A stretch of DNA of 64,000 nucleotides from a virus. The position numbers and the translations under genes were made by a program. The stretch lies in the IMG/VR virus record IMGVR_UViG_3300012642_000011, positions 256,001 through 320,000 of that record; one strand, 5' to 3'. A model generated the notes under the pieces. It worked only from the letters and a program-made list of their open reading frames with translations, had not been told where the DNA came from and searched no databases. This document shows positions 2,979-59,325 of this stretch, piece by piece. Every line of letters begins with the position of its first letter. Positions within the stretch are counted from its first letter, which is position 1.

Positions 2979-3497
2979 ATGAGCACGAAGAAATCAAAGC
3001 GACTGGCGTACATTCTGCGTCACGATCCGGCATCTGCGAACACCACTGCCAGTGAGCAGGGTTGGGTCAGTGTGTCGGATATCATGCGTGCTCTCAACGT
3101 CACCATGTCTCAGTTGCAGGTCATCGTGAGCGAGGACAACAAGGGTCGCTACGAGTTCTCTGCAGACAATGAGATGATCAGAGCAACTCAGGGCCACTCC
3201 TACCCTGTCAACTTGGGATGGGAGAGCGTGCTTCCTCCTGCTATCCTCTACCACGGCACGGCTACGCGATTCGTTGAGTCCATCATGCGTGAGGGTCTGG
3301 TCAAGGGGTCGCGTCAGTGGGTCCACCTGTCTGCTGACACTGCTACAGCCTCGATGGTTGGTTCTCGTCATGGCGAGTTGGTCATCCTTGAGGTGGCAGC
3401 ATCTCGCATGGCAGCGGATGGTCGCTCCTTCTACCGCTCTTCCAACGGCGTGTGGATGGCTGAACATGTCCCTGTGGAGTACATCACCACCCTCTGA
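2979..3497 (+). CDS. kptA: RNA 2'-phosphotransferase, Tpt1/KptA family
   Basis: Motifs LAYILRHDP, RATQGHS, LYHGTA, VHLSAD...RHG..VIL, NGVWM match the KptA/Tpt1 signature along the whole length. Promoter TTGATT-17-TACGAT upstream. Confidence 0.9.
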   Translation: MSTKKSKRLAYILRHDPASANTTASEQGWVSVSDIMRALNVTMSQLQVIVSEDNKGRYEFSADNEMIRATQGHSYPVNLGWESVLPPAILYHGTATRFVESIMREGLVKGSRQWVHLSADTATASMVGSRHGELVILEVAASRMAADGRSFYRSSNGVWMAEHVPVEYITTL

Positions 3498-3580
3498 TAG
3501 CAGAGAATCTTGTGGCACACAGTTGTCACAGGATTCTCTCATGACGGACAGGGGACACAAAAACAGAACAACACCAACCA

Positions 3581-3632
3581 AACACTACGGCCCGCCGTTC
3601 CCTCGTGTGAGGTACTGGGCGGGCCGTAGTGT
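3581..3632. terminator. bidirectional hairpin terminator with conserved loop (GGCCCGCC-GTTCCCTCGTGTGAGGTACT-GGCGGGCC)
   Basis: Between convergent genes 2979..3497 (+) and 3638..3940 (-). Inner CCTC-GTGT-GAGG palindrome. Confidence 0.7.
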
Positions 3633-3637
3633 GGAGG

Positions 3638-3940
3638 TCACAGACCAGAGAGTTCAGACTTGACAGAACACATCCACGACGGGGTGATCTCGTTGATGCT
3701 CTCAACCATGAACTCCTTCTCGTTGAAGGCGTTGATGAAGTTGATCACGTTGTTGAACTTGAAGTAGGTGATGTAGTCATCACCAGAGAGTTCGCCGTTC
3801 TCGATCTTCACGGTCAGACCATTCACCTCGAAGGTGAAGTAGAAGACAGTCATCTCACCAGTGTGCATGCAGAAGTCACAGGTGCCCCAAGTGATGTCCT
3901 CCTGGCTGCTGTCAACGTTCACGATCTTCACGGGGTACAT
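3638..3940 (-). CDS. hypothetical protein 100 aa
   Basis: ORF track. Conserved promoter/leader 3941-4020. Confidence 0.7.
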   Translation of the reverse strand: MYPVKIVNVDSSQEDITWGTCDFCMHTGEMTVFYFTFEVNGLTVKIENGELSGDDYITYFKFNNVINFINAFNEKEFMVESINEITPSWMCSVKSELSGL

Positions 3941-4060
3941 GGTATCTCCTTGTGGAGTAATGGTCTCGGGCTGTTCCCTCGACCTGATGAATCAATAGTA
4001 GCACAGGGGACGCTCCATACGCAACTCCACAACGCGAATAATTTGAGTAGAGTCGTAGCC

Positions 4061-4522
4061 TCACCCCATACGGTAGGAGAAAAGCGTCTCGAAACCCTGT
4101 ACGCCCTCATCATCCACTGTCCCACGGCTTACATGAATCCAGTTAAAAGGCTCATTCTCGCCCTCCATGCTTGCCCCTGTCACATGCGGCAGATAGCCGT
4201 CGCCGTGGTGCTCGGGAACAGCAAGGGACGCTCCACTATCGATAGCGGCGCGCAAAAGATGATCGTGCATAGTGCCGATCTGGTTGCTCTTCAAAACTTC
4301 AATGACGTGAATTGCTTCCCCATCGTCCCCCTGAAACACCTGCTCACCTTGATTAGAAGTGATCACAGGGCCAAAATAGAAACAAGCATTCTTTACTCTG
4401 TCAATGAACTTGTTGACCTGATCCTCTGTGTCAACACGGAAGGCAGGCATCAGTGTCAGATGGAAAACAGATCCTTCACCGTGATCAACAATCACATAGA
4501 TCTTCATGTCCTTATTGTGCAT
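4061..4522 (-). CDS. hypothetical protein about 153 aa (start at MHNKDMKIYVIV)
   Basis: ORF 4061..4660 trimmed to an ATG with RBS AAGGAA. Start uncertain, alternative at 4504. Confidence 0.5.
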   Translation of the reverse strand: MHNKDMKIYVIVDHGEGSVFHLTLMPAFRVDTEDQVNKFIDRVKNACFYFGPVITSNQGEQVFQGDDGEAIHVIEVLKSNQIGTMHDHLLRAAIDSGASLAVPEHHGDGYLPHVTGASMEGENEPFNWIHVSRGTVDDEGVQGFETLFSYRMG

Positions 4523-4656
4523 CTTGGATTCCTTGTCTGAATATGAGTTTGTCAACAATCTATCATGGATGAACGTATAAGACAACCTTGTTTTCAGGCG
4601 AGGTCTCCTTAGGGACACAGGATACTCGTAGATGATCCTTTCCGAAGTCTTGGGGA

Positions 4657-4866
4657 TCACTCATTCCATGAAGCGAAATCTCCCCATGTGGACGTACCGG
4701 AATGATCGGTAACGGAATGATCTGCAGAACCGTTATGATCTGTGGTGTCCTTCTGATCGCCTTCGCGGATGAGTCGATGCGCTTCCTCGAAGACGCGACG
4801 ATGGTACTCCGCTTCGGTCTCACCTTCCTCGTAGGTAACGGCAGCGTGCTTCATTGCGTGCTTCAT
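4657..4866 (-). CDS. hypothetical protein 69 aa
   Basis: RBS AAAGGAGAGCATC before ATG. Confidence 0.6.
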   Translation of the reverse strand: MKHAMKHAAVTYEEGETEAEYHRRVFEEAHRLIREGDQKDTTDHNGSADHSVTDHSGTSTWGDFASWNE

Positions 4867-8182: not shown

Positions 8183-8488
8183 TCATACGTTCACGATGGT
8201 GGCGTTCTTCATGTGCTGGTCGTAGGCGTCCACGATGATAGCGGCCAGCTGACCACGCTCGCTCACGTCGTAGCCGTTCTTGATGGCCCACGCTCGGATG
8301 GTGGCCGTGGTGGTCTTGGGGCGGTAGGAGGGGTTCTCGTCACGGAACTGGGCCACGAGATCCTTGGACAGACGACCACGGACGCTGACCTCGATGCCCT
8401 TGGACTTGGCCCACTGGCGGATGTCAGCGGCAGCCGAACGGCCAGCGATGAGGGTCTTGTCCTCGTTGTACTTGCGCTTGGTGGTCAT
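8183..8488 (-). CDS. Lsr2-like DNA-binding protein, two tandem C-terminal-type domains
   Basis: Two copies of the Lsr2 C-terminal motif (IRQWAKSKGIEVSVRGRLSKDLVAQF and IRAWAIKNGYDVSERGQLAAIIVDAY) with the RGR AT-hook-like core. Conserved leader/promoter. Confidence 0.75.
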   Translation of the reverse strand: MTTKRKYNEDKTLIAGRSAAADIRQWAKSKGIEVSVRGRLSKDLVAQFRDENPSYRPKTTTATIRAWAIKNGYDVSERGQLAAIIVDAYDQHMKNATIVNV

Positions 8489-8713
8489 GGTCTCTCCTAG
8501 GAGTAGTGGTTGGTGTTGAGATTGGCCCCTGTGGCCTCGCTGTTTGCTCTCAACCTGATGAATCAATAGTAGCACGGGGGACGCTCCATGTGCAACATGT
8601 GCAGCACGAATAATCTCGGGATAGTCGCAGCCCTCTATTGGATCACGTAAACTCGTGATAGTATGCTCACACATACCTATGGGGACACATAACTTGCTGT
8701 AAATAGTCAGGTA

Positions 8714-8762: not shown

Positions 8763-9488
8763 TCAGGTCGCACAATCGTTTCCGGTCAACTTTGCATAAT
8801 CACACACTTGTGCGTTGCCAGACACTTGTGCATTTCCGGCCACAAATGCACAATCGTACACTTGTGCGTTACCGGACACTTGTGCGCTGTCTGTTACTTC
8901 TGCATCGTCAGATACCTGTGTATTACCAGTCACTTGAGCGTTGTCATAAATAAATGCTTCACCGGATACTCGTGCTTTACCAGACACCCGTGCGTTACCT
9001 GCCACGCGCGAGTTGCCATAAATTCGCGTGTTACCAGACACTCGCGCATTATCGTACACCTCTGCGTTGCCATATACTCGTGCGTTGTCATGCACAAGAG
9101 CGTCATCAAACACGTAAGCGTCGCCGGACACACAAGCGCTACCGTACACCGAAGCATTGCCAAATACCCAAGCGTTCTCGAACACTCGCGCGTTGCCGTA
9201 AACCCGCGAGTCCTCAGTGACGTATATGTTACCAAGCAACTCTGCGTTATCATACGCCTGAGCGTTCTCGTACACCCGAGCGTTATCAGTCACGTGCGCA
9301 TTGCCGTACACCTTCGCCTCATCATTGACCCATGCATTATCTGAGAGATTGTCCATGCTCTCCACATAACCGCCCAGATCCCCAGATTTCACCTCATGAT
9401 CGGGCAGGTCGCGTGTGGCTCGAATACGGTGGAGCGTTCGACCGTTGTAGTGAATCGTTTCATCTGTCAGTTCGTAATTCTTATTCAT
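8763..9488 (-). CDS. hexapeptide-repeat (beta-helix-like) protein with conserved N-terminal domain, paralog 1 of 6
   Basis: N-terminus MNKNYELTDETIHYNGRTLHRIRATRDLP...GDLGG, then about 30 consecutive V-x-[GDE]-[ND]-A-x hexapeptides. RBS CAAGGAGAAATC. Confidence 0.8.
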   Translation of the reverse strand: MNKNYELTDETIHYNGRTLHRIRATRDLPDHEVKSGDLGGYVESMDNLSDNAWVNDEAKVYGNAHVTDNARVYENAQAYDNAELLGNIYVTEDSRVYGNARVFENAWVFGNASVYGSACVSGDAYVFDDALVHDNARVYGNAEVYDNARVSGNTRIYGNSRVAGNARVSGKARVSGEAFIYDNAQVTGNTQVSDDAEVTDSAQVSGNAQVYDCAFVAGNAQVSGNAQVCDYAKLTGNDCAT

Positions 9489-9502
9489 GATTTCTCCTTG
9501 TA

Positions 9503-10258
9503 TTATTTAGTCCAGCGTGCGACACGGGCGCGGCACTGATCAATGACGGATTGGTACTCGGGACGTGCGTCACGAATGATTTCAGGGTCAGTGGTTTCAA
9601 CCCATGAATCCGAGTCGCAGAGGATCTGGTGATCATCAAGAGTGCCTGACTTGCAACCGATATGGAGAACATGATCATCCGTGGTGCGGTGCAGGGTCCA
9701 ATTGAATTGCCGATTGGTGCAGAGTGTGCCGATCATAATATGCTTTTCTTCAGCCACTCGCGCGTACCCAAACACGTGTGCGTTACCAAAAACTCGCGCG
9801 TACCCAAACACCCGTGCGTTACCACACACCCGTGCCCAATTGTACACTTGTGCGTCATCGGACACTTGTGCGTTGTCTGTTACTTCTGCATTCTCAAATA
9901 TGTGTGCCTTACCAGCCACTTGAGCTTTGTCATAAATAAATGCGTCATCGGACACTAGTGCGTCCCCGAACACTTGTGCGTCCCCGAACACTTGTGCGTT
10001 ACCGGACACGCGTGCGTTGCCATATACACGCGCGTCATCGTACACCAAAGCGTTCCCTGACACTCGTGCGTCATCGTACACCATCGCCTCATCAGCGACC
10101 CATGCGCTATCGGAGAGGTTGTCCAGATGTTCCACGAAGCCGCCCAGATCGCCGGGCTTTACAGCGTGGTAGGGTAGTTCTCGTGTTGCACGAATGCGGT
10201 GGAGCGTTCGACCGTCGTAGTGAATCGTTTCATCTGTCAGTTCGAAATGCTTATTCAT
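9503..10258 (-). CDS. hexapeptide-repeat protein paralog 2 (non-repeat C-terminal extension)
   Basis: Same N-terminal domain and hexapeptide repeats. Own promoter TTGCGC-18-TAGGGT. Only 14 nt from the downstream paralog. Confidence 0.8.
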   Translation of the reverse strand: MNKHFELTDETIHYDGRTLHRIRATRELPYHAVKPGDLGGFVEHLDNLSDSAWVADEAMVYDDARVSGNALVYDDARVYGNARVSGNAQVFGDAQVFGDALVSDDAFIYDKAQVAGKAHIFENAEVTDNAQVSDDAQVYNWARVCGNARVFGYARVFGNAHVFGYARVAEEKHIMIGTLCTNRQFNWTLHRTTDDHVLHIGCKSGTLDDHQILCDSDSWVETTDPEIIRDARPEYQSVIDQCRARVARWTK

Positions 10259-10467
10259 GGCGTCTCCTTGAAAATGGTAGGGATTATCTTATCAACGATC
10301 CTATGCTGCCCTTACCCTATCATATGGGACGCTCTATGCGCAACCTATTTCTTGTACTAATTGGGCTATATTGCGACAAGTGATGCCGAAGTTTACACAA
10401 GGGGACACAGTAGCGAAAACAGAGAACGGACAAGGCGACAGTCGATGCCACCTTGTCCGTTCTCTGA

Positions 10468-10779
10468 TCAGGCTGCGAGGTTGTAGTAATCCTTGAGGTC
10501 AGTGTTCTTGAACCCACCCATAGCGTGAGCGTTTCGCTCCGACATGGCCCACGTGCGGATCTTCTTGTTCTGGGTGCGGTGGAAGTAGTTCCGGTTCCGC
10601 TGGACTCGCGTTCCGAAGTTGACGATATCCTCGTAGTTCGCGTAGGTGGTGTTGTCCTTCTTGTTCTTGACACGATTGATGGTGCTCTCATCGGCGGGGA
10701 AAAGGTAGATGCCCTTGCCGGGAACGCGGATCTCGACATGACCCTTGACATCGGAAGCGAAGACCTGGAAGTTCTGCAT
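10468..10779 (-). CDS. divergent Lsr2-like protein 103 aa (RGR motif replaced by MGG)
   Basis: N-terminal HVEIRVPGKGIYLFP resembles the Lsr2 N-terminal domain. C-terminal KKIRTWAMSERNAHAMGGFKNTDLKDYY is an Lsr2-like DNA-binding motif without the Arg-Gly-Arg core. Conserved leader. Confidence 0.6.
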   Translation of the reverse strand: MQNFQVFASDVKGHVEIRVPGKGIYLFPADESTINRVKNKKDNTTYANYEDIVNFGTRVQRNRNYFHRTQNKKIRTWAMSERNAHAMGGFKNTDLKDYYNLAA

Positions 10780-11022
10780 AATCTCTCCTTGAGAGTGGTA
10801 AGGGTCGCTCTGTGTTGCTCTCCCTTGCTGATGAGTCAATAGTAACACGGGGGACGCTCCATGCGCAACCTGACAGCAGAAATAATCTAGGGAGGCTCAC
10901 AACCTCTCGATTGGATCACTTCAATTCGTGATAGTATGCTCACACATACCTATGGGGACACATAACTTGCTGTAAACAGTCAAGTAGCACAGTAGGGATA
11001 CAACTACTGTGCTACTTGGGTT

Positions 11023-11724
11023 TTACCACCTGCAATCAAACCAATTAATTTCATCAGTAACTATTGCATTACCGGACACCCGCGAGTTACCAATCACCCG
11101 CGCATATTCGCAAACCCTCGAACAACCAGTCACTATTGCATTACCTGACACCAATGCTCTGTCTGTCACTTGTGCATTACCATTCACCATTGCTCTTTCA
11201 GAGACCAGTGAATTACCAAATACCTGTGCGTCACCCCTCACTATCGCGTCATCGATAACCCTTGTTTTGCCGTGTACACGAGCATTGCCAGACACATGCG
11301 CATGACCGAACACCCACGCTTCATCGAATACTCGTGCAGAGATATATACATATGCGTAACCGAACACCCGTGCGTCACCATAGACCCACGCTTCACCGGA
11401 CACTGATGAATTACCACTCACCAATGCGTTGCCGAAAACCCGCGCACTATTGTACACATGTGCAGTACCAGTCACCAATGCATTACCGGACACCATTGCC
11501 TTACCATTCACTTTTGCGCCCCCTGATACCCGCGCGTCCCCGTACACCATAGCCTCGCCACCGACCCATGCGATATCTGAAAGGTTATCCAAACGCTCCA
11601 CAAAACCACCCAGATCACCTGACTTTACGCGGTGCTCGGGCAAGTCTTGCGTGGCGCAGATACGATGGAGCGTGTGTCCTTCATAGCGGATCGTCTCATT
11701 TGTTAGTTCAAAGTGTTTAGTCAT
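11023..11724 (-). CDS. hexapeptide-repeat protein paralog 3
   Basis: Conserved N-terminal domain plus hexapeptide repeats. RBS GAGGAAAACC. Confidence 0.8.
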   Translation of the reverse strand: MTKHFELTNETIRYEGHTLHRICATQDLPEHRVKSGDLGGFVERLDNLSDIAWVGGEAMVYGDARVSGGAKVNGKAMVSGNALVTGTAHVYNSARVFGNALVSGNSSVSGEAWVYGDARVFGYAYVYISARVFDEAWVFGHAHVSGNARVHGKTRVIDDAIVRGDAQVFGNSLVSERAMVNGNAQVTDRALVSGNAIVTGCSRVCEYARVIGNSRVSGNAIVTDEINWFDCRW

Positions 11725-11825
11725 GGTTTTCCTCGTGAAGTAATGATCTTTGTTTATTTCCTATAGTAGATTTTTAGATTTTCCATCGGATTATTTCATT
11801 TCTTGATCAGGTTACTCACAGACGC

Positions 11826-12347
11826 TCACCTGTGCATCACGGTCACTTCTGCGTCGCCAGACACTCGCACGTCACCTGTCATCCATGCTTCTCCAAACAC
11901 GCGTGCGTTACCAATCACATTCACGCTGTCGGCCACAACCGCTTCCCCATACACGTGAGCATTCTCAGCCACGTATGCATTACCGGACACTCGCGTGTCG
12001 CCATGCACTCGCGCGTCACCTGTCACCCATGCTTCGCCGTACACTCGCGCATTACCGAACACCCGCGCGCGACCATCCACCAGTGCGTTACCGGCCACCT
12101 GTGCATTACCAGACACCTCTGCATTGCTGTACACCTGCGCGTTATCATATACTCGCGCGTCATCGTACACCTTGGCCTCATCAGCAACCCATGCGTTACC
12201 TGAAAGGTTGTCCATGCCCTCCACAAAACCGCCCAGATCACCGGCCTTCACGTCATGAATAGGCAGGTTTCGTGTTGCACGGATGCGGTAGAGCGTGCGG
12301 CCCTCATGATTGATGGTCTCGTCAGTCAGTTCGAAGTGCTTATTCAT
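11826..12347 (-). CDS. hexapeptide-repeat protein paralog 4
   Basis: Conserved N-terminal domain plus repeats. Own promoter TTGCGT-17-TAGGGT. Confidence 0.8.
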   Translation of the reverse strand: MNKHFELTDETINHEGRTLYRIRATRNLPIHDVKAGDLGGFVEGMDNLSGNAWVADEAKVYDDARVYDNAQVYSNAEVSGNAQVAGNALVDGRARVFGNARVYGEAWVTGDARVHGDTRVSGNAYVAENAHVYGEAVVADSVNVIGNARVFGEAWMTGDVRVSGDAEVTVMHR

Positions 12348-12573
12348 AGTTTCTCCTTGAAATGGTAGGTGATGACCTTACCCTATCATGGAGACGACCC
12401 ATACGCAACATGTGCAGCATGAATGATCTATGGAGACTCACGGTATCTCAATTGGGTCATTTCAACTCATGAGACTACTAAAGGGACACAAAACGTGGTA
12501 CAAACAAGGCAATCAGCACAGTAGGAATCCCACTACTGTGCTGATTGCCTTTTATTGCTTGGAATCAGGCCGC

Positions 12574-13038
12574 TCAATCAGTGCCGATTACCGACATCTC
12601 ATCGAACACTCGCGCGTCGCCGGACACTCGTGCGTTACCGGACACCCATGCGTTACCGAACACGTTCGCATCACCGGACACCCATGCGCTACCGGAGACA
12701 TATGCCCCTTCGTACACCCACGCATTGCCATAGACCCATGCATCGTCGTACACACGCGCATTGCCAAACACTCGTGCGTTACCGGACACTCGGGCGTAAC
12801 CGAACACTCGCGCGTTGTCATACACTCGCGCGTTATCAGTCACGTGTGCATTGCCGTACACCTTCGCCATATCAGCGACCCACGCGTTATGTGAGAGATT
12901 GTCCGTGCCCTCCACGAAACCACCCAGATCACCCTGCAGCACGTTGTGCTCTGGCAGGTCGCGTGTGGCACGGATGCGATAGAGCGTGCGACCCTCATGG
13001 TTGATGGTCTCGTCAGTCAGTTCGAAGTGGTTGCTCAT
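12574..13038 (-). CDS. hexapeptide-repeat protein paralog 5
   Basis: Conserved N-terminal domain plus repeats. Confidence 0.8.
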   Translation of the reverse strand: MSNHFELTDETINHEGRTLYRIRATRDLPEHNVLQGDLGGFVEGTDNLSHNAWVADMAKVYGNAHVTDNARVYDNARVFGYARVSGNARVFGNARVYDDAWVYGNAWVYEGAYVSGSAWVSGDANVFGNAWVSGNARVSGDARVFDEMSVIGTD

Positions 13039-13268
13039 AGCGTCTCCTTGAGAGTGGTAGGGTGTTGTCCTATTGACGTTCCCGTGATTCCCTTATCCTA
13101 TCATGGGAGACGCTCCACATGCAACACTAGTGATCTAGGGAGGCTCACGACATCTCAATTGGATCACTTCAACTCGTAAGAATGCTAAAGGGACACAAAG
13201 TATTAAGTAAACAATCAGGTAGCACAGTAGTGGTATTCCTACTGTACTACCTGACTTTTGTTGCTTGA

Positions 13269-14084
13269 TCAGGTCGCTCGTTCGTTACCTAACACTCGTG
13301 CGTAACCATACACCAGCGCGTTGTCGGTCACCCATGCATCACCCTGCACCTGAGCGTTGTCTTCCACTCGCGCATAGGTGAGCACGCATGCGTTACCAAA
13401 CACTCGCGCGTTACCGGACACTCGCGCATAGTCAGTCACTTGCGCGTTATCGTACACCATTGCACCACCGAACACCTGAGCGTTACCGGACACCTGTGCC
13501 TCACCGAACACTTGGGCGTTACGAGATACCCACGCGTTACCGGACACCACTGCATCGCCGTACACTTGTGCGTCTTCATCAATATATGCACCACCGAACA
13601 CCTGAGCGTTACCGTACACTCGGGCGCAATCGGACACTCGTGCGTTATCGTACACTCGCGCGTCGCAAAGCACTAGCGCGTTACCCGTCACTCGCGCGTT
13701 ACCGGACACTCGCGCATAGTCAGTCACTTGCGCGTTATCGTACACCATTGCACCACCGAACACCTGAGCGTTACCGGACACCTGTGCCTCACCGAACACC
13801 CAAGCGTAACCGAACACTCGCGCGTCGTCGCCAATATATGCCTTACCGAACACCCATGCATCATTGGATACCCGTGCGTTACCAGATACCAGCGCGTTAC
13901 CAAACACATACGCCTCATCAGCAACCCATGCATCATCTGAAAGGTTGTCCAGACGCTCCACGTAACCACCCAGATCCCCAGCCTTCACATCATGATCGGG
14001 CAGATCTCGTGTCGCACGGATACGATAGAGCGTTCGACCGTAGCGGATGATGGTATCGTTTGTCAGTTCGAAGTGCTTGCTCAT
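13269..14084 (-). CDS. hexapeptide-repeat protein paralog 6 (longest, internal duplication)
   Basis: Conserved N-terminal domain plus repeats. Internal near-identical segment duplication (GNAQVFGGAMVYDNAQVTDYARVSGNARV twice). Confidence 0.8.
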   Translation of the reverse strand: MSKHFELTNDTIIRYGRTLYRIRATRDLPDHDVKAGDLGGYVERLDNLSDDAWVADEAYVFGNALVSGNARVSNDAWVFGKAYIGDDARVFGYAWVFGEAQVSGNAQVFGGAMVYDNAQVTDYARVSGNARVTGNALVLCDARVYDNARVSDCARVYGNAQVFGGAYIDEDAQVYGDAVVSGNAWVSRNAQVFGEAQVSGNAQVFGGAMVYDNAQVTDYARVSGNARVFGNACVLTYARVEDNAQVQGDAWVTDNALVYGYARVLGNERAT

Positions 14085-14337
14085 GATTTCTCCTTATGAA
14101 TGAGGGGCGATTCGTGTTTGCTGCCTTCGTCGCTAACGCAACTCTACCATAGGAAACACTCCACTATCAACTCTGAAACGAAACTTCAAGGTCAATTCTT
14201 ACCATCCTTTGAGTATAGGGGACACAAGTTGCGAGGGTGTTTCCTACAAGTCCTCATGGTCTCCCCATGTTGACAATGAGTTACCCATGTGTTAGATTTA
14301 AGTCATCAACAGGTTCATTGGTACAGGAGAGTGAAAC

Positions 14338-14709
14338 ATGAAGCAGGGATTGATCGTACTCATTGATGATCTGAGGTCATTCAAGGATGCTCAGATGATG
14401 GAGAATGCTGTAGTGATCCGCACAATCAAAGATGCGCTGACGTGGCTGGATGCTTCCAGTGGTGTTCATGTTGCCCAGTTGTGGCTTGACCATGATCTTG
14501 GCGAGGTGGATGGTGTTGCTACAGACGTGATGCCGTTCGTGAACTTGCTGGAAGAGCGACTTGCCTTGGGAGAGGACGCTCCGTATATTGACGATGTGAT
14601 CGTCCACACTTCGAACACTGTGGGTCGCTCTCGCATGATTGCTGCCTTGTCGGGCCGTGTGGGTCGCGTGGTGGTTGTGGACGCTGGCGCGTACTTCACC
14701 GCTCAGTAA
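14338..14709 (+). CDS. CheY-like receiver (REC) domain-like protein
   Basis: LIVLIDD (beta1 acidic pair) and LWLDHDLGEVDG (beta3 phospho-acceptor-like) then VIVHTSN. RBS CAGGAGAGTGAAAC. Bidirectional terminator 14712-14765. Confidence 0.65.
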   Translation: MKQGLIVLIDDLRSFKDAQMMENAVVIRTIKDALTWLDASSGVHVAQLWLDHDLGEVDGVATDVMPFVNLLEERLALGEDAPYIDDVIVHTSNTVGRSRMIAALSGRVGRVVVVDAGAYFTAQ

Positions 14710-17038: not shown

Positions 17039-17211
17039 GATGCTCTCCTTGGGGAGTGGTAGGGATTGCTCTGTTTTGCTCTCCCTGTTGATGACTCAAC
17101 TCTAACATGTGGGGACGCTCCATGTCAACTGGTTTGAGCAATAATTTTTAGGCAGCCGAAACGCACAGTGTTATCACAGGAAACAGAAAGGGACACAGAA
17201 CTTCTCGCAGT

Positions 17212-18995: not shown

Positions 18996-19337
18996 TCAGG
19001 CGTGAGCGGCCTTGTAGGCGTCGATCACGTCCTTGGGGAAGCGGCCACGGGTGCCGACCTTGTAGCCGTTCGCCTTGGCCCACTCGCGGACCTTGGCGGC
19101 GTCCTGACCCACCTTCAGGTCGGGGTTGACCTTGTAGGAGCGGACGACGCGGCGGACGGAGTTCTCGATGATCTTGTCGGACTTCTCGATCAGGAACGTC
19201 TCGTCCTTGATCTTCTCCACGGACTTGGAGTTCAGGGGAACCTCGTACACACCCTTGTTGGGGATGCGCACCTGAACCAGCTTGGCACCCATCTGCTTGG
19301 TGATCGCGTCCTGCAGGAAAGCCTGGGTCTTCGTCAT
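18996..19337 (-). CDS. lsr2: Lsr2-like nucleoid-associated protein
   Basis: C-terminal [32 protein letters not shown] is the canonical Lsr2 DNA-binding motif. N-terminal oligomerisation-like domain. Conserved leader/promoter. Confidence 0.85.
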
Positions 19338-19580
19338 GATTTTCTCCTTGATGAGAGTATTTCGGGATTGCTCTGTGTTGCTCTCCCTTGCTGATGAATC
19401 AAATGTACCACAGGGGACGCTCCATGTGCAACATGATTTCCGAAGATCGTGGAACTTTTCTACCCGTGAGAACAAAAGGCAGCATGAAGACCACACACAG
19501 ACAACCCACAGGGGACACAAGATGAGAGCAACAAGAAAGGGTGTGGACGTTTGTATGCGGCCACACCCCTCTTTGATCAA

Positions 19581-20674: not shown

Positions 20675-21832
20675 TCAGCGACGGTTCAAGTACGCATTGA
20701 AGGCAAGAGACAGCGGCTTGATGAGAGGACGTGACCACTCGCCGTGAGTCTGCACCACGTCAGCGCCCACAGCCGTCTTGAACATGGTCAGGCCAGAAGT
20801 CTTGCCGTTCGCCTTCAATGATCCCGGCACGCCGATCAGGTCATACCACTTGCACCCATACTTCACGGCGTCAGAGATCATCTCCCACTGAACAGCGCGG
20901 GAAGCGTACATCTTACGATGCTCAGCACTGGAACCGCCGTACAGGTACCACAGAAAATCGCCCTGACGGATCGTGAGCGCTGCAGCAAGCGGAATGTCCT
21001 CGTGGTAAGCGACAATGACCTCAGCGTGGGCGATCTCCGAGCGATCAAAAACTTCAAGGAGACGCTCAAAGTAGGAGACAGGTCGGGGAGTGAACTGCTC
21101 ACGCTCTGCCGTCATCACATAGAGTGCGTGGAAATCATGCACGAGGGACGCTCCACGCTTGATGATCAGACCCTGCTTCAGAGACTTGCGCGTTTCGGAT
21201 CGAGAGGTCTGGTTCATGCGCATGAGGACGCTCTCGGCATCTGACTCAATCGGAATGCGTGCTTGAAACATGGGCTGACCATTACCGAAGTCCTCTTCGA
21301 TAGAAGGCTCCTTGAATCCAGCGCGAACCATGTCTGATTCAATGGAGATCTGGCGATAATCCACATCTGCCTGAAGTTCCATCAGGTGCTCGTACTGGTC
21401 GTCCTTGAGTGCCTTGCGTACCACGTCAGCATCCCAACGTCGGACAGTCTCAGGAAGACCCAGACGGAGTTCGAACGCACCAGTCTTCTTCACGTAGGAA
21501 GTCAGGGCAGGGAGCACATCAGAGATATGCACATCTGCGTTTACTACAGGACCTTCACTGATGTAGGCCAGAGACAGGTTGCCGATCACAGGGATCTTGT
21601 TCACGACAGGAAGCGGGCGGTAGAGGATCAGGGACGCTCCAACCAGAACGTCCTCATGGTAGATGCCTACGGACTCGTTGCGCCACTCGCTCTTGACCTC
21701 ACCCCAGTGTGGGTTCTGCAGGAAGGATGCAGCAGGACGGGTAGACAGATATGCCTCATGCTGATCTGCGGTGATAGCGCGGATCGTGTAGTCCTTGTTT
21801 GCCTTGATTGGCTTGGTTGCGGTAGCGGTCAT
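20675..21832 (-). CDS. FemAB-family / GNAT-fold aminoacyltransferase-like protein 385 aa
   Basis: Length and overall pattern resemble FemABX-type (Acetyltransf_6) proteins. The assignment is not verified. RBS TGAGGAAACT. Hairpin 20624-20664 at the stop. Confidence 0.8.
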   Translation of the reverse strand: MTATATKPIKANKDYTIRAITADQHEAYLSTRPAASFLQNPHWGEVKSEWRNESVGIYHEDVLVGASLILYRPLPVVNKIPVIGNLSLAYISEGPVVNADVHISDVLPALTSYVKKTGAFELRLGLPETVRRWDADVVRKALKDDQYEHLMELQADVDYRQISIESDMVRAGFKEPSIEEDFGNGQPMFQARIPIESDAESVLMRMNQTSRSETRKSLKQGLIIKRGASLVHDFHALYVMTAEREQFTPRPVSYFERLLEVFDRSEIAHAEVIVAYHEDIPLAAALTIRQGDFLWYLYGGSSAEHRKMYASRAVQWEMISDAVKYGCKWYDLIGVPGSLKANGKTSGLTMFKTAVGADVVQTHGEWSRPLIKPLSLAFNAYLNRR

Positions 21833-36224: not shown

Positions 36225-37229
36225 TCACTCACCATGCTTGGCAAGGAACTTGTTGTTGATGGCCTTGAAGTTGGCACGGTCGCCGGTCTCAGCGAACTCC
36301 TTGCCCTCACGGTTCCACCACACCACGCCCTCAGCCTGCACCTTGGGGTTGATCGTGGAGGTCATGCCGTTCACCTGCTCCACGGCCTGCTCTACAGTCT
36401 CAGGGAGAACAAGGTCGAGGTGCGGGACGGAATGCTTCTCCACGAAGGCGTCGAATGCCTCATCGGCAACAGGGGAAGACGCGGAGAACACCAGAAGACG
36501 GTTACCCTGAATCTTCAGCTTGTTGCCCTGAATTCCCTCGCCCACAATCTCGCCCTGAATGATAGCACCCTCGGGCATGATCTCTGCAAGACCAAGACGC
36601 TCCGCCATCTTCGCCTGCATAGACTCCGTGGGGTGAAGCGTCCAGTTGCGCCCTGCCACCACGATCTCGCCCTCACGCTTGAGGAACGTGGAGGACGTAC
36701 CATCCACCTTCTCCGTAGCAAACCACTCGTTGCGGTCAAGGGAGGCAAGGAACTCATCGGAGAGGTTCTGCACGCGCTCAGAATCGGTCTTACGAACACC
36801 ATGAGGGAACGGGTCCACCATCTGACCACCCATGGGAATCGGAGGCTCGAACTTGAACACGCCCAGACGCTCCGCCACAGCATCCACTTCGGACTGTGTG
36901 GAGTCAGCGTTCAGACCGAATCCCAGCGGGAGGATAAGACCCTGAGAGAACACGCCGCGCAGCTTCATGGTGCGGAGGACATGCCCACGAACGGTCTGCC
37001 CGTTGGGGGACGTGGCATCCTTGGAGGACTTCGCAGACAGGAAGGAGAACTCCGGCACGTCAGCGGGAAGGAAGGCGTCGATCTCGAAATAGAGAACAGG
37101 CTGACCAGCCTTGAACTCACCCTTCTTCACGACAGACTTCCAGCCGCCGATGGTGGCGACCTCGATAGCGTCAGCGTTCTCGATGGGATCGATTCCATCG
37201 ATCTTCTTGATGCTCATCATCTTGCGCAT
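36225..37229 (-). CDS. ATP-dependent RNA ligase, Rnl5 family (NgrRnl/DraRnl-like)
   Basis: Nucleotidyltransferase motif I EKVDGTS (KxDG). N-terminal domain KKIDGIDPIENADAIEVATIGGWKSVVKKGEFKAG. EPPIP, KTDSERVQNL, GRNWTL, IQGEIVGEGIQGN, FKAINNKFLAKH all parallel NgrRnl-type ligases as I recall them. RBS AAGGAGAGTGGAAT. Confidence 0.9.
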   Translation of the reverse strand: MRKMMSIKKIDGIDPIENADAIEVATIGGWKSVVKKGEFKAGQPVLYFEIDAFLPADVPEFSFLSAKSSKDATSPNGQTVRGHVLRTMKLRGVFSQGLILPLGFGLNADSTQSEVDAVAERLGVFKFEPPIPMGGQMVDPFPHGVRKTDSERVQNLSDEFLASLDRNEWFATEKVDGTSSTFLKREGEIVVAGRNWTLHPTESMQAKMAERLGLAEIMPEGAIIQGEIVGEGIQGNKLKIQGNRLLVFSASSPVADEAFDAFVEKHSVPHLDLVLPETVEQAVEQVNGMTSTINPKVQAEGVVWWNREGKEFAETGDRANFKAINNKFLAKHGE

Positions 37230-37347
37230 ATTCCACTCTCCTTGTGGTTGTTGTGCTCTTTCTCAAATAATCGTACTACACATGAGTGCCCCCTGTCAAC
37301 ATGGGATCACGTTAACAGGGGGACGCTCCACTTTGATCAATCATGGT

Positions 37348-44012: not shown

Positions 44013-44019
44013 TTGGTAA

Positions 44020-44028
44020 GGGGACACA
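44020..44028 (+). repeat. GGGGACACA intergenic motif
   Basis: GGGGACACAGAATGTGA. Confidence 0.8.
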
Positions 44029-44164
44029 GAATGTGATATACAGCCACTCATACTTCCGAAGAAATAACCCCTAGACCAACTTGACTTCCCAATTCGCTCA
44101 TGCAATGATGGTGCTAATAGGTCAGGGCAACGGGCGCTGACCACTACTATACAAGGAGAGCATC

Positions 44165-44630: not shown

Positions 44631-45029
44631 TCAGAACAACGTAGGATGCTCGTAGAACTCGTGGACGATCACAGGAACCTTCTTGCTCAATGCAATCTTC
44701 ATGCAGTTGCGAGTACCATAGGAGTCGCCATAAGGGAAGGCAACGCACAAGTCAACGCCGGTATCAACCATCTTGGCATTCCTGATGTAGCCTGCTGACT
44801 TGCCATACTCATCCCACTGTGCAGGATGAGCCTCAACAACCCAACCACGCTCGACAGCCCACTGCGCACCTATCGCATCTGCGCCACGCGCGTTGCCATG
44901 CACGAACACGTTCTCCTTGTCCTCGCCGTGCTGTAACACCCACTTGTCGTAAGCGTCATCAAGCGCTTCATATACCTCTGCAGCATGGTCATCCGTGAGA
45001 TTACGGCTTCCTGTGATCAGCATTCTCAT
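44631..45029 (-). CDS. DUF2493 (SLOG/YpsA-like) family protein
   Basis: MRMLITGSR...VHGNARGADAIGAQWAVERG...AQWDEYGKSAGYIRNAKMV...LCVAFP fits the DUF2493 pattern common in actinophages. RBS AAGGAGGAATCATT. Confidence 0.75.
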   Translation of the reverse strand: MRMLITGSRNLTDDHAAEVYEALDDAYDKWVLQHGEDKENVFVHGNARGADAIGAQWAVERGWVVEAHPAQWDEYGKSAGYIRNAKMVDTGVDLCVAFPYGDSYGTRNCMKIALSKKVPVIVHEFYEHPTLF

Positions 45030-45761: not shown

Positions 45762-46595
45762 ATGATGATGCAGGCTGAGATCTTCAAGACCGTGGAGACC
45801 ACGAAGAAGGTTGCTATCTCTGGCGATTGGCACGGTGATACCACGTGGGCGCTGGATATGATCAGGGCTGTCCATGATCGTGGCATCAAGGTCATCCTCC
45901 ACGTTGGTGACTTCGGGATCTGGCCGGGCAAGTCGGGTGCATCGTATCTGCGCAAGGTGAACAATGCTCTTGCTGATCGTGGTATGATCCTTCTGCTGAC
46001 TGCTGGCAACCATGAGGACTACACTCAGATCGGCAAGGCTGAGCAGGTGGAGGGCATGCCCGATGGGTTCAAGGCGCGTGCTCATGCTCCCCATGTGATC
46101 ATCCTTGATCGTCCGACTCGTTGGATGATGGGGGGACGCTCTTTCATCTCCGTGGGCGGTGCGAACAGCATTGACTTTCAGGGTGGCACCTTAGGCAAGG
46201 ATTACTGGCTGGACGAGCAGATCACGGATGAGCAGGTGGATCTTGCCCGTGAGGGTGGTCACGCTGAAATCATGATCTCTCATGATACTGCTACAGGCGT
46301 CATGGACGGCATCGTGGATTCTGCCTCCGAGTGGACGGAAGAGGGCTTTAAGTACGCTCAGAAGTCCTCTGACCAGTTGAAGCGCATCACGGACGATGTT
46401 CGCCCCGTGGTGAACTTCTTCGGGCACTACCACAGGTTCATTAACCGCACTGTGACGCTGCGCGTTCCGTTCATGGGCGATTACGCTATGCGTGCTGTGT
46501 GCTTGGACATGCAGAGGCGTGCTGGCAACACTGTCATCTTCGACATTGAGGCCATGCGCATTGATGAGGTCTCCATCTGGGGGCTGCGAGTGTGA
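45762..46595 (+). CDS. calcineurin-like metallophosphoesterase (lambda-phosphatase / Pnkp phosphoesterase-like)
   Basis: Motifs GDWHGD, VGDFGIW, GNHE, GHYH. RBS AGAAGGAGGA before ATGATGATG. Terminator 46599-46642. Confidence 0.85.
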   Translation: MMMQAEIFKTVETTKKVAISGDWHGDTTWALDMIRAVHDRGIKVILHVGDFGIWPGKSGASYLRKVNNALADRGMILLLTAGNHEDYTQIGKAEQVEGMPDGFKARAHAPHVIILDRPTRWMMGGRSFISVGGANSIDFQGGTLGKDYWLDEQITDEQVDLAREGGHAEIMISHDTATGVMDGIVDSASEWTEEGFKYAQKSSDQLKRITDDVRPVVNFFGHYHRFINRTVTLRVPFMGDYAMRAVCLDMQRRAGNTVIFDIEAMRIDEVSIWGLRV

Positions 46596-47068: not shown

Positions 47069-47098
47069 CTCTAACATGCAGGGACGCTCCATGTCAAC
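47069..47098 (-). promoter_or_regulatory. conserved promoter TTGACA-TGGAGCGTCCCTGCATG-TTAGAGT
   Basis: Drives 46761..47006. Leader variant 2. Confidence 0.65.
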
Positions 47099-52135: not shown

Positions 52136-52720
52136 ATGAAGCCGTTATTGTACATGGACATTGATGGCGTCCTCAACCCCTTGCGTTCTCGATCCAAAGG
52201 ACGCCCTGAAGGGTGGAACGCAGCGTATATGGACAATTCTGGCGATGAACCCATTGTCTTCCCATCAAAGAGGTTCTACAGGTACAAGAATCATGGGCAC
52301 ATCATCGTCTGGTACCCTGTGGACGCGCGTGAGTGGTTCGACGCTCTCAAGGATGTCTACGATGTCTGCTGGGCAAGCAAGTGGGGACGCTCCGCAAGCA
52401 CTGTCTACGCTGGACTTTTCGGTATGGAAGGCGAGATCCCGTTCCTCGACATTCCTAACATTCCAGAGGCGCAATGCCCCCTCTCGCGTTACACTGGCCG
52501 TCATGCCAAGGATTGCGACTGCCTGCACTCCAAGACGCTATTGCTGACCGATCACGCCGATGGTCGTCCGTTCGTGTGGGTGGATGATGAGGCGACCAAG
52601 AGGGACGTGACATGGTTGACCCAGAACGATCCACGTGGCCGTGCTTACATCGTGGACGGGTATCACGGATTGCGCCGTGGTGATGTCAACTCGTTGGTGG
52701 GCATGGCACAGGATCTCTAA
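52136..52720 (+). CDS. HAD-superfamily phosphatase-like protein
   Basis: Motif I LLYMDIDGVLNP (DxDGT-like). Later VWVDDEA. Terminator 52722-52772. Confidence 0.75.
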   Translation: MKPLLYMDIDGVLNPLRSRSKGRPEGWNAAYMDNSGDEPIVFPSKRFYRYKNHGHIIVWYPVDAREWFDALKDVYDVCWASKWGRSASTVYAGLFGMEGEIPFLDIPNIPEAQCPLSRYTGRHAKDCDCLHSKTLLLTDHADGRPFVWVDDEATKRDVTWLTQNDPRGRAYIVDGYHGLRRGDVNSLVGMAQDL

Positions 52721-55345: not shown

Positions 55346-55437
55346 GTTCTTCTCCATTCAAAGTGATGGGGTCAAGTTCTTCTCAACCCCTGTTGATGGT
55401 CCTACTCTACCACGGGGGACGCTCCATCTACAAGAGA

Positions 55438-57145: not shown

Positions 57146-57197
57146 GTAAGAAGGGAGGGGGAGGAAATAATCCTCCCCCTCCCTTCTGGTATTGCTT
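57146..57197 (+). terminator. hairpin terminator (GAAGGGAGGGGGAGGA...TCCTCCCCCTCCCTTC)
   Basis: After 56371..57138. Confidence 0.7.
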
Positions 57198-57211
57198 AGG
57201 GACACAGAATG

Positions 57212-57688
57212 TCATATAGGTTTGAGAACACCTGTTACCATTGCCATGAGGGAGAAATCCGCATCCTCTTGGTCCTGCTTCATTAAATCTTGCACTGCAA
57301 GGTCGTATTTCTCAATGGCGGCTGAAGTGAGCATGTGATCAATGAAGACGCACTGAGCGTCAAATATCTCATCTCTGTCCGTGAAGAATGCTTTACTCTC
57401 CAAGGCATGCCTCATCAGGTTTTCATCAACCATGTCCAAGTGATTGTGATGTGCAAGGTCAGCCACAAGGTCTGGACGCTCTGTGAGCAGACGGTAGGTT
57501 GCTGGGGGTAGAGTGATCGCGTGAGCAGCTACGTCCGCCCCTAGTCTCTCCACTACGTGATTCAGGTCAGACGGGATTCTGAAAGCAAGTGTGGTCAAGT
57601 CGATGACGTACTTAGGGTCTTCCTGCATAACGAGATGAACTCGCCTGTGAAAATGCTGAGAGTGAGAAGAAGTATATGATTGACTCAC
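57212..57688 (-). CDS. hypothetical protein about 158 aa (GTG start proposed)
   Basis: No RBS at the track start 57712. GTG at 57688 is preceded by GGAAGGGAGG. Confidence 0.55.
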   Translation of the reverse strand: MSQSYTSSHSQHFHRRVHLVMQEDPKYVIDLTTLAFRIPSDLNHVVERLGADVAAHAITLPPATYRLLTERPDLVADLAHHNHLDMVDENLMRHALESKAFFTDRDEIFDAQCVFIDHMLTSAAIEKYDLAVQDLMKQDQEDADFSLMAMVTGVLKPI

Positions 57689-57818
57689 TGCGCCTCCCTT
57701 CCGTGCTAACATGTCGGCAGGTTAAATATCCGCAGAGCATGAAAAGGGACACAGTATGAGTGCATTCTTAGTACTGCAGATGGGAGTGCCTCCTCCATAG
57801 AGACACTCCCATCAATGA

Positions 57819-57956
57819 TCAACGACGGCGGCGGCGACGCTTCTGGTAAACAGAGGTGGTGCGGCGATCCTTGAAGAATGAGATGACTGCGAAAAACAGC
57901 GCCAGCGTCAAGACTGCAGCAACTGCCAGCATAACGAAAAGCATCTGTCCAAGCAT
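57819..57956 (-). CDS. small membrane protein 45 aa with poly-Arg tail
   Basis: RBS AAAAGGAAATATT. Hydrophobic helix plus RRRRRR C-terminus. Confidence 0.5.
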   Translation of the reverse strand: MLGQMLFVMLAVAAVLTLALFFAVISFFKDRRTTSVYQKRRRRRR

Positions 57957-58093
57957 AATATTTCCTTTTGTATTCGGGATGGGTTCTGAAGATAAAAAGT
58001 TGTAGGGGGTGAGCGATGACACACCACTCACCCCCATTGCTTCACACGCGAGATGCTCTCAGCCTACAGCATCTGGGTGCAGTGGTCAATCCA

Positions 58094-58261
58094 TCATCGG
58101 ATCACGATATCGAACTTCTTCCCATACTCGGTCATGATCTCAGAGCTCTCATACTCAATGAGATCATCCAAGGTCTCGCCGTCAAGGTCGTTGGACTCGA
58201 TGACCAGACACTCATTAAGATCGACAATGGTACCAGTGCCGGGGTGAACGATGAGCTTCAT
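58094..58261 (-). CDS. hypothetical protein 55 aa
   Basis: RBS GAAGGAGTACAAC. Confidence 0.6.
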   Translation of the reverse strand: MKLIVHPGTGTIVDLNECLVIESNDLDGETLDDLIEYESSEIMTEYGKKFDIVIR

Positions 58262-58336
58262 GTTGTACTCCTTCTGCTGATTGTTGAAAGTGTTCTGTGC
58301 TCTCGTGTTCAAGTGTACTCTACGTTGTCCTTCTTG

Positions 58337-58445
58337 TCAAAGCGAGATCTGGGAGATCTTCTCCTGAAGCGAAGCAACCATGGCAAGCGTCCGCTCCGCA
58401 GAATCCTCCATGTCAGTGATGACCTGATCAACAACAGCGGTCATG
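58337..58445 (-). CDS. small protein 35 aa (MTAVVDQVITDMEDSAERTLAMVASLQEKISQISL)
   Basis: Manual translation. RBS AGAAGGAGCATC. Confidence 0.4.
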
Positions 58446-58710
58446 ATGCTCCTTCTTGACGGATTGATCTTGTTGACACCATCATCTCACATGATCAGCA
58501 GCATGTCAACAGTGAAGATTTATTTCACGACACAAGCAGGTCATGAGGCCAATGCGTGCTGTAGGCACTCATTGGGGACACAAGATTTGAAAGAGGAGAT
58601 TCAACCTCAACCTCAACGATGATGCGGGGTACTGTTGTACGATCTGCACATCTGATACTTCAGGGGCCGTGACATTTGAAATCCGTCCCCCTTTCTGCTA
58701 TTCTGACCAC

Positions 58711-59325
58711 ATGAAGAAGACGATCATGCTCGTAGACATTGATGGCACGCTTGCCATCAACAATACGGCAGAGAGCAAGCCTCTCAACGGATTCAATAGC
58801 GAATGGGCAGAGATGACCATTTCCCGACTGGATCACCCTGAGATGTTCACAGGCGCAGTAGAGCAGTTGGCAAGCATCAATCGCGTCCTTGCCGACGATG
58901 CCAAGATCGAGGTGGCTGTGGACCTGACCATGCTCTCTGCCTTCTCGCAGATCGCTTCCCGCCCCCATGTGGAGTGTAAGTGGCTGACCATGTGGGAAGA
59001 CAAGGCTGTGGACTTGTTCGCTCCGTTCACGGGACTTGGTGAGGAATGGGACGTGCTGAAGAAGGGGGACGCTCCAAGAGATTGGAAACTGAGCGTTCTG
59101 GATCAGGTGGCTGGTAAGAACCCCGATACTCAGATCATCTTCCTTGACGATGACGTAGCCGTGCTCCCCTCTCATTTCGCCGCTTTGGAGGAGATCGTGG
59201 AGTCCCGTGAGAACGTGTTCGTGGTGGTTCCTACTCCTCACGTGGGCTTGACGGCTGTAGAGGTAGGATGGATTGGTTCTGTCGTGGACAATCCGAATAT
59301 GGTGAATGCACTGCTGTGTGAATGA
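58711..59325 (+). CDS. HAD-superfamily phosphatase-like protein
   Basis: Motif I MLVDIDGTLA. Later IIFLDDD. Start uncertain (track 58669, weak RBS). Confidence 0.65.
   Translation: MKKTIMLVDIDGTLAINNTAESKPLNGFNSEWAEMTISRLDHPEMFTGAVEQLASINRVLADDAKIEVAVDLTMLSAFSQIASRPHVECKWLTMWEDKAVDLFAPFTGLGEEWDVLKKGDAPRDWKLSVLDQVAGKNPDTQIIFLDDDVAVLPSHFAALEEIVESRENVFVVVPTPHVGLTAVEVGWIGSVVDNPNMVNALLCE

Follow-up and report, generated by a model that had tools for sequence, protein, structure and literature searches.

Do RNA-processing enzymes scattered along a phage genome act together to mend broken RNA, or does each serve a purpose of its own? This question is raised by a 64,000-nucleotide stretch of viral DNA (positions 256,001 to 320,000 of IMG/VR record IMGVR_UViG_3300012642_000011; hereafter the window, numbered from its first letter), for which an initial annotation made from the sequence alone had listed an Rnl5-type RNA ligase, a Tpt1/KptA 2'-phosphotransferase, a calcineurin-type metallophosphoesterase (MPE), and two HAD phosphatases (here HAD1 and HAD2) as a kit that could heal and seal RNA ends. 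We found two further candidates absent from that list, a cREC protein and a YAcAr SLOG-domain protein, and we favor, with moderate confidence, a picture of two loosely coupled modules: the ligase, the two HADs, and cREC would heal and seal RNA, and Tpt1 with YAcAr would form an NAD+-dependent adjunct. This picture is carried by family membership, intact catalytic residues, and recurrent linkage of the same families in other phages. We read the ligase, the HADs, and cREC as enzymes of phage RNA repair, probably of tRNA, because a neighborhood of ligase, kinase, CCA, and tRNA genes marks such repair.

Results

Catalytic signatures of the candidate enzymes

All five genes of the initial annotation proved real, and each belongs to the superfamily given there. 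The assignment of the ligase gene (Table 1) to the Rnl5 family was borne out. An N-terminal OB-like domain (PHA02142 OB-fold; PF21189, 6.5e-28, residues 5-102) is followed by an adenylyltransferase domain (PF09414, 4.7e-11, residues 168-323) with no C-terminal appendage. The protein matches phrog_968 (1.4e-57), can be aligned over its full length with NgrRnl of Naegleria (5cot; E 4.6e-46, residues 2-333 versus 5-338), and scores above the equivalog cut-off of TIGR02306, RNA_lig_DRB0094 (170.6 versus 151.15 bits). Motif I EKVDGTS (Lys174), QGEIVGEGIQGN, AEGVVW, and FKAINN all have NgrRnl counterparts; motifs I, III, IV, and V are conserved, and K174, D176, G177, E227, E300, G301, and K322 are invariant in the ligase alignment. 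The sequence aaggagag precedes the ATG start. A 432-aa open reading frame (ORF) overlapping the ligase in antisense (36234-37532, plus strand) has zero family matches and was rejected as a gene.

Both HADs had been likened to the 3'-phosphatase of T4 Pnkp. Their HAD motifs are indeed intact, but the family appears to be the "Swiss army knife" family HAD_SAK_2 (PF18143) and not the Pnkp HAD. HAD1 falls just short of the profile cut-off (27.4 versus 27.5 bits), with profile positions 1-138 of 139 matched, and PF18143 is found in all five of its homologs; D8, D10, K133, D150, and D151 are invariant in the alignment. An AlphaFold2 model with a predicted local distance difference test score (pLDDT) of 77 matches HAD-superfamily folds alone, and weakly. 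HAD2 has no direct family match in Pfam, PHROGs, or the HAD_SAK_2 profile, and a word-indexed homolog search returned a single, near-identical protein (99% identity). Exhaustive phmmer recovered 68 relatives, with HAD_SAK_2 matched by 50 of the 59 that were aligned, and HAD2 keeps D9, D11, T93, K126, D146, and D147 at invariant or nearly invariant columns. A direct BLASTP alignment of HAD1 with HAD2 is limited to the N-terminal motif; hhalign joins the two families with 99.8% probability (E 1.5e-28). Searches of PDB by sequence gave nothing useful for either. We predict that HAD1 is an RNA-end 2'/3'-phosphomonoesterase.

The cREC protein scores 54.3 bits against PF20274 (cut-off 27; 2.2e-14) and retains the acidic residues of LIDD and LDHDLG. 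A single-sequence scan of IMG/VR gave zero relatives, and single-sequence phmmer likewise overlooked the cREC genes of ligase loci, which came to light through unbiased clustering of neighbors; a profile built from these ligase-linked genes matches the window protein (E 2.4e-4). The gene follows an ordinary TTGACA-N17-TAGATT promoter. Aravind's group has predicted 2',3'-cyclic phosphates or ADP-ribose cyclic phosphate as the substrates that this family opens, and as a predicted 2',3'-cyclic phosphate opener cREC would fill the first healing step.

Tpt1 is full length, as annotated, with nearly complete coverage of PF01885 (1.7e-41, 142.7 bits versus 26, profile positions 5-176 of 177) and matches to phrog_5470 (2.6e-56) and PDB entry 7kw8 (6.1e-41). 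This entry, the closest solved Tpt1, we take to be the enzyme of Runella slithyformis. LRH, IRATQGHS, and SRQWVHLS align to it, the catalytic tetrad R14-H15-R68-R112 is intact, and the tetrad is invariant among four phage Tpt1 proteins. The protein falls below the NCBIfam equivalog cut-offs for bacterial KptA (best NF002014, 202.1 versus 239 bits), and by this measure is a divergent member of the family, not an exact equivalog. No obvious Shine-Dalgarno sequence precedes either Tpt1 or HAD2. The YAcAr protein, which matches PF10686 (1.1e-14), is predicted to bind or process NAD/ADP-ribose derivatives and is a likely partner of Tpt1; its gene lies 0.7 kb from that of the MPE, and about 1 kb separates YAcAr from Tpt1 in an unrelated phage lineage.

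The MPE label holds in part. The protein is a metallophosphoesterase (PF00149, 4e-7; phrog_1649, 3.9e-38) whose metal ligands are all invariant across 57 homologs, but the proposed lambda-phosphatase/Pnkp type does not fit: motif II reads HVGDFGIWPG (family consensus GDFGIWPG) and not GDxxDRG. Searches of PDB by sequence gave nothing useful. A confident structural model (pLDDT 95.4) has as its nearest structures Dbr1, aq_1956, CWF19L1, TT1561, Lmo2642, GpdQ, ADPRibase-Mn, and Mre11, none of them a PPP phosphatase, and scores far lower against the PPP phosphatase PP5. The protein looks active and is of the Dbr1/Mre11/GpdQ-like phosphodiesterase type.

No kinase was found to complete the set. 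The initial annotation had seen no polynucleotide kinase P-loop, and a Walker A scan agrees, with no [AG]x4GK[ST] in any window ORF of at least 60 aa. A kinase profile built from ligase loci has no match in the window either. Annotations also show no kinase in the window, in about 7 kb beyond one end, or in about 10 kb beyond the other. Across these roughly 81 kb, PHROG and Pfam scans and precomputed annotations likewise revealed no 2H, Macro, NADAR, RtcB, or second ligase gene. The PHROG scan was run per ORF; the Pfam scan was run on concatenated ORFs, where weak matches such as Metallophos were lost, and was repeated per ORF.

Linkage of the enzyme families in other viruses

We surveyed 80 Rnl5 loci of IMG/VR, representing 43 lineages at 70% identity, and counted neighbors within 10 kb by lineage. 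A T4 Rnl1-type ligase accompanies Rnl5 in 15 of the 43 lineages, HAD_SAK_2 in at least 11, an AAA_33 kinase in 8, a metallophosphoesterase of a family other than the window's in 7, CCA/PolyA_pol in 6, and cREC in 5; tRNA genes are present at 38 of the 80 loci. The closest large-contig relatives, three viral contigs of 260-325 kb whose ligases are 46-51% identical to that of the window, have a HAD_SAK_2 gene ending 1-2 nt before the Rnl5 start (L105, L106, and L107), an arrangement that looks operonic, and HAD_SAK_2 adjoins the ligase in L109 and L149 as well. HAD2 shows tblastn similarity to the HADs of tRNA-rich ligase loci (L108-L110) and to "phosphatase" genes of Arthrobacter phages.

Cultured phages place these genes in similar company. 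The closest cultured ligase (40% identical), from Arthrobacter phage Racecar, lies within a tRNA array; in the matching block of phage Atuin, a HAD2-like phosphatase gene directly adjoins tRNA-Thr and tRNA-Cys. A T4-like Aeromonas phage has its Rnl5-type ligase near both rnlA (2.3 kb) and pseT (4.6 kb).

Tpt1 keeps different neighbors. Among 80 Tpt1 loci, representing 37 lineages at 80% identity, the recurrent ones, each in 3-4 lineages, are NAD synthase, nicotinamidase-type isochorismatase, NAMPT, PRPP-synthase-like, and NADAR genes, with a Thg1-like enzyme and an ATP-dependent DNA ligase at the same frequency. cREC is found at none of the 80 loci, and in 3 of the 37 lineages Tpt1 has a member of the window's MPE family within 10 kb. 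One lineage of 27 members has the order MPE (window's family) ... isochorismatase ... PRPP-synthase-like - NAMPT - HAD-like - Tpt1 - x - x - YAcAr. This NAD+ island (L094:1942-11865 and 26 similar loci) also holds an adenylosuccinate-synthetase-like gene. In three cultured phages, the annotated neighbors of Tpt1 are nearly all hypothetical, with zero homologs of the kit within 8 kb.

The MPE family of the window occurs at none of the 80 Rnl5 loci, and its homologs adjoin Prim-Pol/WhiB, or YqaJ/NADAR/NERD/RecX, or ordinary cellular genes. Membership of the MPE in the kit is doubtful; if it is linked to anything, it is possibly to the NAD side, with Tpt1 and YAcAr.

A separate observation concerns the HAD_SAK_2 family. 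On a phage-like contig (L019:1-5625), a homolog lies downstream of adenylosuccinate synthetase (possibly PurZ-like), dCTP deaminase/dUTPase, and Lyase_1 genes, a context that hints that some members act in nucleotide metabolism.

Across these loci, cREC and HAD_SAK_2 keep company with ligases, kinases, and tRNA arrays, and Tpt1 with NAD+ salvage genes, NADAR, and YAcAr. For the RNA repair role first proposed for all five genes, these neighborhoods make the case plausible for the ligase and both HADs and weak for Tpt1, and they do not extend it to the MPE.

Genomic setting and host

Identical ligase, Tpt1, and HAD2 proteins are encoded on several metagenome contigs, the longest of 332,269 bp (ENA ERZ27289831 k141_11150), in which the window corresponds approximately to positions 59744-123743 in reverse. 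Kit proteins of identical sequence recur on 5-23 independent contigs from several samples. Cultured phages show zero nucleotide-level similarity to the window. About 100 mostly small genes are present, codon usage calling 74 on the minus and 30 on the plus strand (104 called), and window genes match PHROG families specific to phages with E down to 1e-99. Five of the seven kit genes are on the minority plus strand, a post hoc and weak bias. We conclude that the window comes from a part of a jumbo phage genome given over to accessory genes. Real genes are often shadowed by long antisense ORFs, probably an artifact of codon bias.

The host appears to be an actinobacterium, because many genes carry Lsr2 domains and homologs come from actinobacteria and Arthrobacter phages, the source of the MPE and HAD homologs. 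Lsr2 DNA-binding domains occur in at least five genes, with up to three copies per protein (Table 1), an unusual richness of paralogs that itself suggests an actinobacterial host.

Several other genes stand out. Six YdcK-type beta-solenoid (hexapeptide/bactofilin-like) paralogs form an array and have a common N-terminal domain, 'HFELTDETI..GRTL.RIRATR.LP'; they match phrog_5070 and phrog_7964 (E down to 1e-99), and their relatives are dispersed among very diverse phages. On the ligase strand, 1.3 kb upstream of the ligase, a gene encodes a GmrSD_C/HNH (DUF1524-type) nuclease domain behind an N-terminal lipoprotein-like signal (LAAMTATGC). A FemAB-family/GNAT peptidoglycan-bridge-type aminoacyltransferase homolog (PF02388, 1.4e-45) is also encoded. 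FemAB enzymes use aminoacyl-tRNA as substrate, and this homolog is a possible further connection to tRNA. An IS605 OrfB/TnpB (Cas12f-like) gene lies in the phage contig about 5-6 kb past window position 1.

Promoter-like motifs

The window is rich in an 11-mer, TGGAGCGTCCC, with 50 copies at no more than one mismatch against 1.29 expected, 49 of them on the minus strand. Many copies belong to a sigma-70-like frame, TTGACA-N2-3-TGGAGCGTCCCC-N4-5-TAGAGT, that precedes minus-strand genes, and after the frame come a conserved 5' leader and a ribosome-binding site (RBS), AAGGAGA. Some copies lie antisense within plus-strand genes, including HAD1 and HAD2. The motif probably represents either a phage-specific class of promoters or the site of a regulator. 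For the copy upstream of the ligase, the -35 and -10 hexamers are poor; because the TTGACA...TAGAGT frame is present at other copies, we infer that the motif marks a class of minus-strand promoters.

A repeat search revealed a second recurrent motif, GGGGACAC(A/G)GAA, that precedes many plus-strand genes by about 60-100 nt; these genes otherwise have ordinary TTGACA-N17-TAnnnT promoters without a conserved spacer. GGGGAC is common to this motif and the reverse complement of the minus-strand motif.

Table 1. Positions of the candidate kit genes and of other features in the window, its flank, and related loci
Feature	Position	Strand	Remarks
Tpt1/KptA NAD+-dependent RNA 2'-phosphotransferase	2979..3497	+	172 aa
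cREC, cyclic-phosphate-processing receiver-like domain protein	14338..14709	+	123 aa
Rnl5-family (NgrRnl/DraRnl, DRB0094-type) ATP-dependent nick-sealing RNA ligase	36225..37229	-	334 aa
YAcAr (YspA/cpYpsA-related) SLOG-domain protein	44631..45029	-	132 aa from an ATG with a good RBS
MPE	45762..46595	+	277 aa; complete dimetal site; calcineurin superfamily
HAD1, stand-alone HAD_SAK_2 phosphatase	52136..52720	+	194 aa; motif I DIDGV, motif IV VWVDDE
HAD2, highly divergent HAD_SAK_2 paralog	58711..59325	+	204 aa
HAD_SAK_2-ligase pairs in related contigs	L105:9396-11002, L106:9601-11002, L107:9424-11002		
TGGAGCGTCCC copy upstream of the ligase	37320..37330	-	91 nt before the ligase start
TGGAGCGTCCC copies, examples	1524-1534, 17112-17122, 22258-22268, 37320-37330, 47081-47091, 55416-55426	-	
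GGGGACAC(A/G)GAA copies, examples	24780-24805, 44019-44044, 57197-57222; near 2979, 32163, 34404, 52136, 56311		upstream of plus-strand genes
Lsr2-domain genes	8183-8674, 18996-19580, 61171-61872, 62623-63045	-	a further one in the flank, L007:6475-6972
YdcK-type beta-solenoid array	8763-14093	-	six paralogs
FemAB-family aminoacyltransferase homolog	20675-21832	-	
GmrSD_C/HNH nuclease-domain gene	38574-39503	-	
IS605 OrfB/TnpB gene	L007:859-2070		beyond window position 1

Discussion

The families and their linkage suggest how the two modules might work. In the first, metal-independent host RNases would leave a 2',3'-cyclic phosphate for cREC to open, either or both of the HAD_SAK_2 phosphatases would then strip the resulting 2'- or 3'-monophosphate, and the Rnl5 ligase would seal the 3'-OH/5'-PO4 break in a duplex context, for example, in a nicked tRNA arm. 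The 5'-kinase step would fall to a gene elsewhere in the genome or to the host, unless the breaks in question need no kinase. In the second, Tpt1 with NAD+ would remove a terminal or junction 2'-phosphate beyond the reach of the phosphatases, and the YAcAr SLOG protein, possibly with the MPE, would handle NAD/ADP-ribose-derived products. The modules may meet chemically, as a cyclic phosphate opened to a 2'-phosphate would be a Tpt1 substrate. Some Tpt1 enzymes do remove terminal 2'/3' phosphates, with specificity that varies among them (PMC6573784).

Several observations weigh against this picture. The kit genes are spread across 56 kb and both strands, 3-22 kb apart, with no co-regulation visible in this genome; the HADs, whose family directly adjoins the ligase in several other lineages, lie 15-22 kb from it here. 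No tRNA gene was found in the 64-kb window, and, as described above, its ORFs contain no P-loop kinase. Tpt1 occurs at none of the 80 Rnl5 ligase loci, and an Rnl5 ligase lies near Tpt1 in only 1 of the 37 Tpt1 lineages (L044, 2 kb away). The Runella Tpt1 is reported to be inept at removing terminal phosphates. Some stand-alone HAD_SAK_2 homologs lie among nucleotide-metabolism or ordinary cellular genes, and therefore a nucleotidase role is possible. Rnl5 enzymes are known only as duplex nick sealers whose physiological role is uncharted (PMC5397189), and cREC is experimentally uncharacterized (PMC9503650). A search of the literature turned up no experiments on phage Rnl5, cREC, or HAD_SAK_2, and for the latter two families this want of assays counts against the roles proposed here.

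The alternative that survives best, although we consider it unlikely, is that these are independent accessory genes with no coordinated pathway. Tpt1, YAcAr, cREC, and perhaps the MPE would then belong to an NAD+/ADP-ribose network and would either counter NAD- or cyclic-nucleotide-based host defenses or ADP-ribosylate 5'-phosphorylated nucleic acid ends; the HADs would be nucleotide phosphatases, and the ligase would seal RNA-containing nicks in duplex DNA or RNA. The dispersal of the genes suits this explanation, as do the dominance of NAD+ salvage genes and NADAR around Tpt1, the MPE homolog near NADAR, YqaJ, and RecX, and the HAD_SAK_2 homolog amid adenylosuccinate synthetase, dCTP deaminase/dUTPase, and Lyase_1 genes. 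Loss of DraRnl makes Deinococcus radiation sensitive (PMC5397189), and Tpt1 enzymes are reported to ADP-ribosylate 5'-phosphate ends. However, HAD_SAK_2 abuts Rnl5 genes in several lineages, ligase and HAD lie within tRNA arrays of Arthrobacter phages, and cREC accompanies ligases in 5 of 43 lineages and Tpt1 in none of its 80 loci, all of which weighs against independence.

Quite improbable is the scheme closest to the initial annotation, in which its five genes form one linear pathway replacing T4 Pnkp plus Rnl1: the MPE would act as a Pnkp-like cyclic phosphodiesterase or phosphatase, the HADs as 3'-phosphatases, Rnl5 would seal, and Tpt1 would clear the junction 2'-phosphate as in yeast. 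The catalytic sites look intact in all five enzymes, Rnl5 and Tpt1 are neighbors on the viral contig L044, and the MPE family lies within 10 kb of Tpt1 in the 3 lineages noted above. But the MPE is not of the lambda/Pnkp type, its family is missing from the surveyed ligase loci, no kinase is present, Tpt1 and Rnl5 rarely colocalize, and Rnl5 enzymes have been characterized on duplex nicks with 3'-OH/5'-PO4 ends and an RNA 3' strand only (PMC4408790), not on 2'-PO4 junctions. The suggestion that the window holds the ligase/Tpt1 pair of eukaryal-style tRNA splicing conflated two ligase families: in fungi and plants, Tpt1 is partnered by Trl1, a ligase that requires a 2'-PO4 end.

A yeast-like 2'-phosphate pathway assembled by the phage from unrelated parts, in which cREC would yield 3'-OH/2'-PO4 ends, Rnl5 would seal them, and Tpt1 would clear the junction, has in our judgment only a slim chance of being correct. 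If true, it would supply the long-sought natural substrate of a bacterial or phage Tpt1 and the first demonstrated cREC activity. That the genes are decaying or nonfunctional passengers, horizontally acquired and unused, is very improbable: their scatter, the great divergence of HAD2, which had a single word-indexed match, and the weak translation signals of Tpt1 and HAD2 would be in keeping with it, but the catalytic residues are all conserved, the ORFs are full length, and identical proteins recur on 5-23 independent contigs.

We therefore return to the two loosely coupled modules as the reading we favor. If the genes do cooperate, they offer a compact set with which to probe cREC and HAD_SAK_2, families that exist as predictions only, and could reveal the in vivo role of Rnl5 ligases and of non-fungal Tpt1, questions left open in papers from the Shuman laboratory. 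As an annotation finding, the window is otherwise ordinary.

Comparison with known systems

The kit has partial likenesses to several characterized systems. Like Clostridium thermocellum Pnkp-Hen1, the window brings together a binuclear metallophosphoesterase and an RNA ligase in one region of the genome, but its MPE lacks GDxxDRG and groups structurally with Dbr1, GpdQ, Rv0805, and Mre11-type phosphodiesterases, and there is no kinase, fused ligase domain, or Hen1. With fungal and plant Trl1 plus Tpt1 splicing it shares a full-tetrad Tpt1, and its predicted cyclic-phosphate opener could yield 2'-PO4 ends; a Trl1-type ligase, a 2H cyclic phosphodiesterase, and a GTP-dependent kinase are absent, and Tpt1 and Rnl5 do not usually colocalize. 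The logic of T4 Pnkp plus Rnl1 is the same, namely, healing of 2',3'-cyclic phosphate/5'-OH ends, removal of 3'-end phosphate by a HAD-superfamily enzyme, and ATP-dependent sealing. In contrast to T4, the window has no P-loop kinase, its HADs appear to belong to HAD_SAK_2 and not to the Pnkp HAD family, its ligase is the duplex-nick sealer Rnl5 and not the anticodon-loop ligase Rnl1, and its Tpt1 and cREC have no T4 counterpart. The ligase shares its two-domain architecture, its nucleotidyltransferase motifs, and its lack of a C-terminal appendage with NgrRnl of Naegleria gruberi and DraRnl of Deinococcus radiodurans, but is phage encoded.

The idea of RNA repair kits in phages has already been published by Iyer, Burroughs, and Aravind, and the window adds one more instance, rather than a system of a new kind. 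They predicted jumbo-phage kits containing KptA, RNA ligase, 2H/cREC, SAK-HAD or PNK-HAD, calcineurin-like enzymes, and kinases (Iyer et al. 2021, PMC7824862, section 3.4.9; Iyer et al. 2022, PMC9503650, section 3.7.3), and described "rare divergent versions" of ligases from actinophages outside Rnl1 and Rnl2 (PMC7824862). The parts list is the same, with ligase, SAK-HAD, cREC, KptA/Tpt1, YAcAr SLOG, and the occasional calcineurin-like enzyme. The window departs from those kits in several respects: its genes are scattered instead of clustered, Rnl5 serves as the ligase, HAD_SAK_2 is represented by two divergent paralogs, tRNA genes are missing from the vicinity, and the roughly 81 kb examined hold no polynucleotide kinase, 2H, Macro, or NADAR. 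The split in neighborhoods, with cREC and HAD_SAK_2 on one side and the partners of Tpt1 on the other, refines the published picture of the kit.

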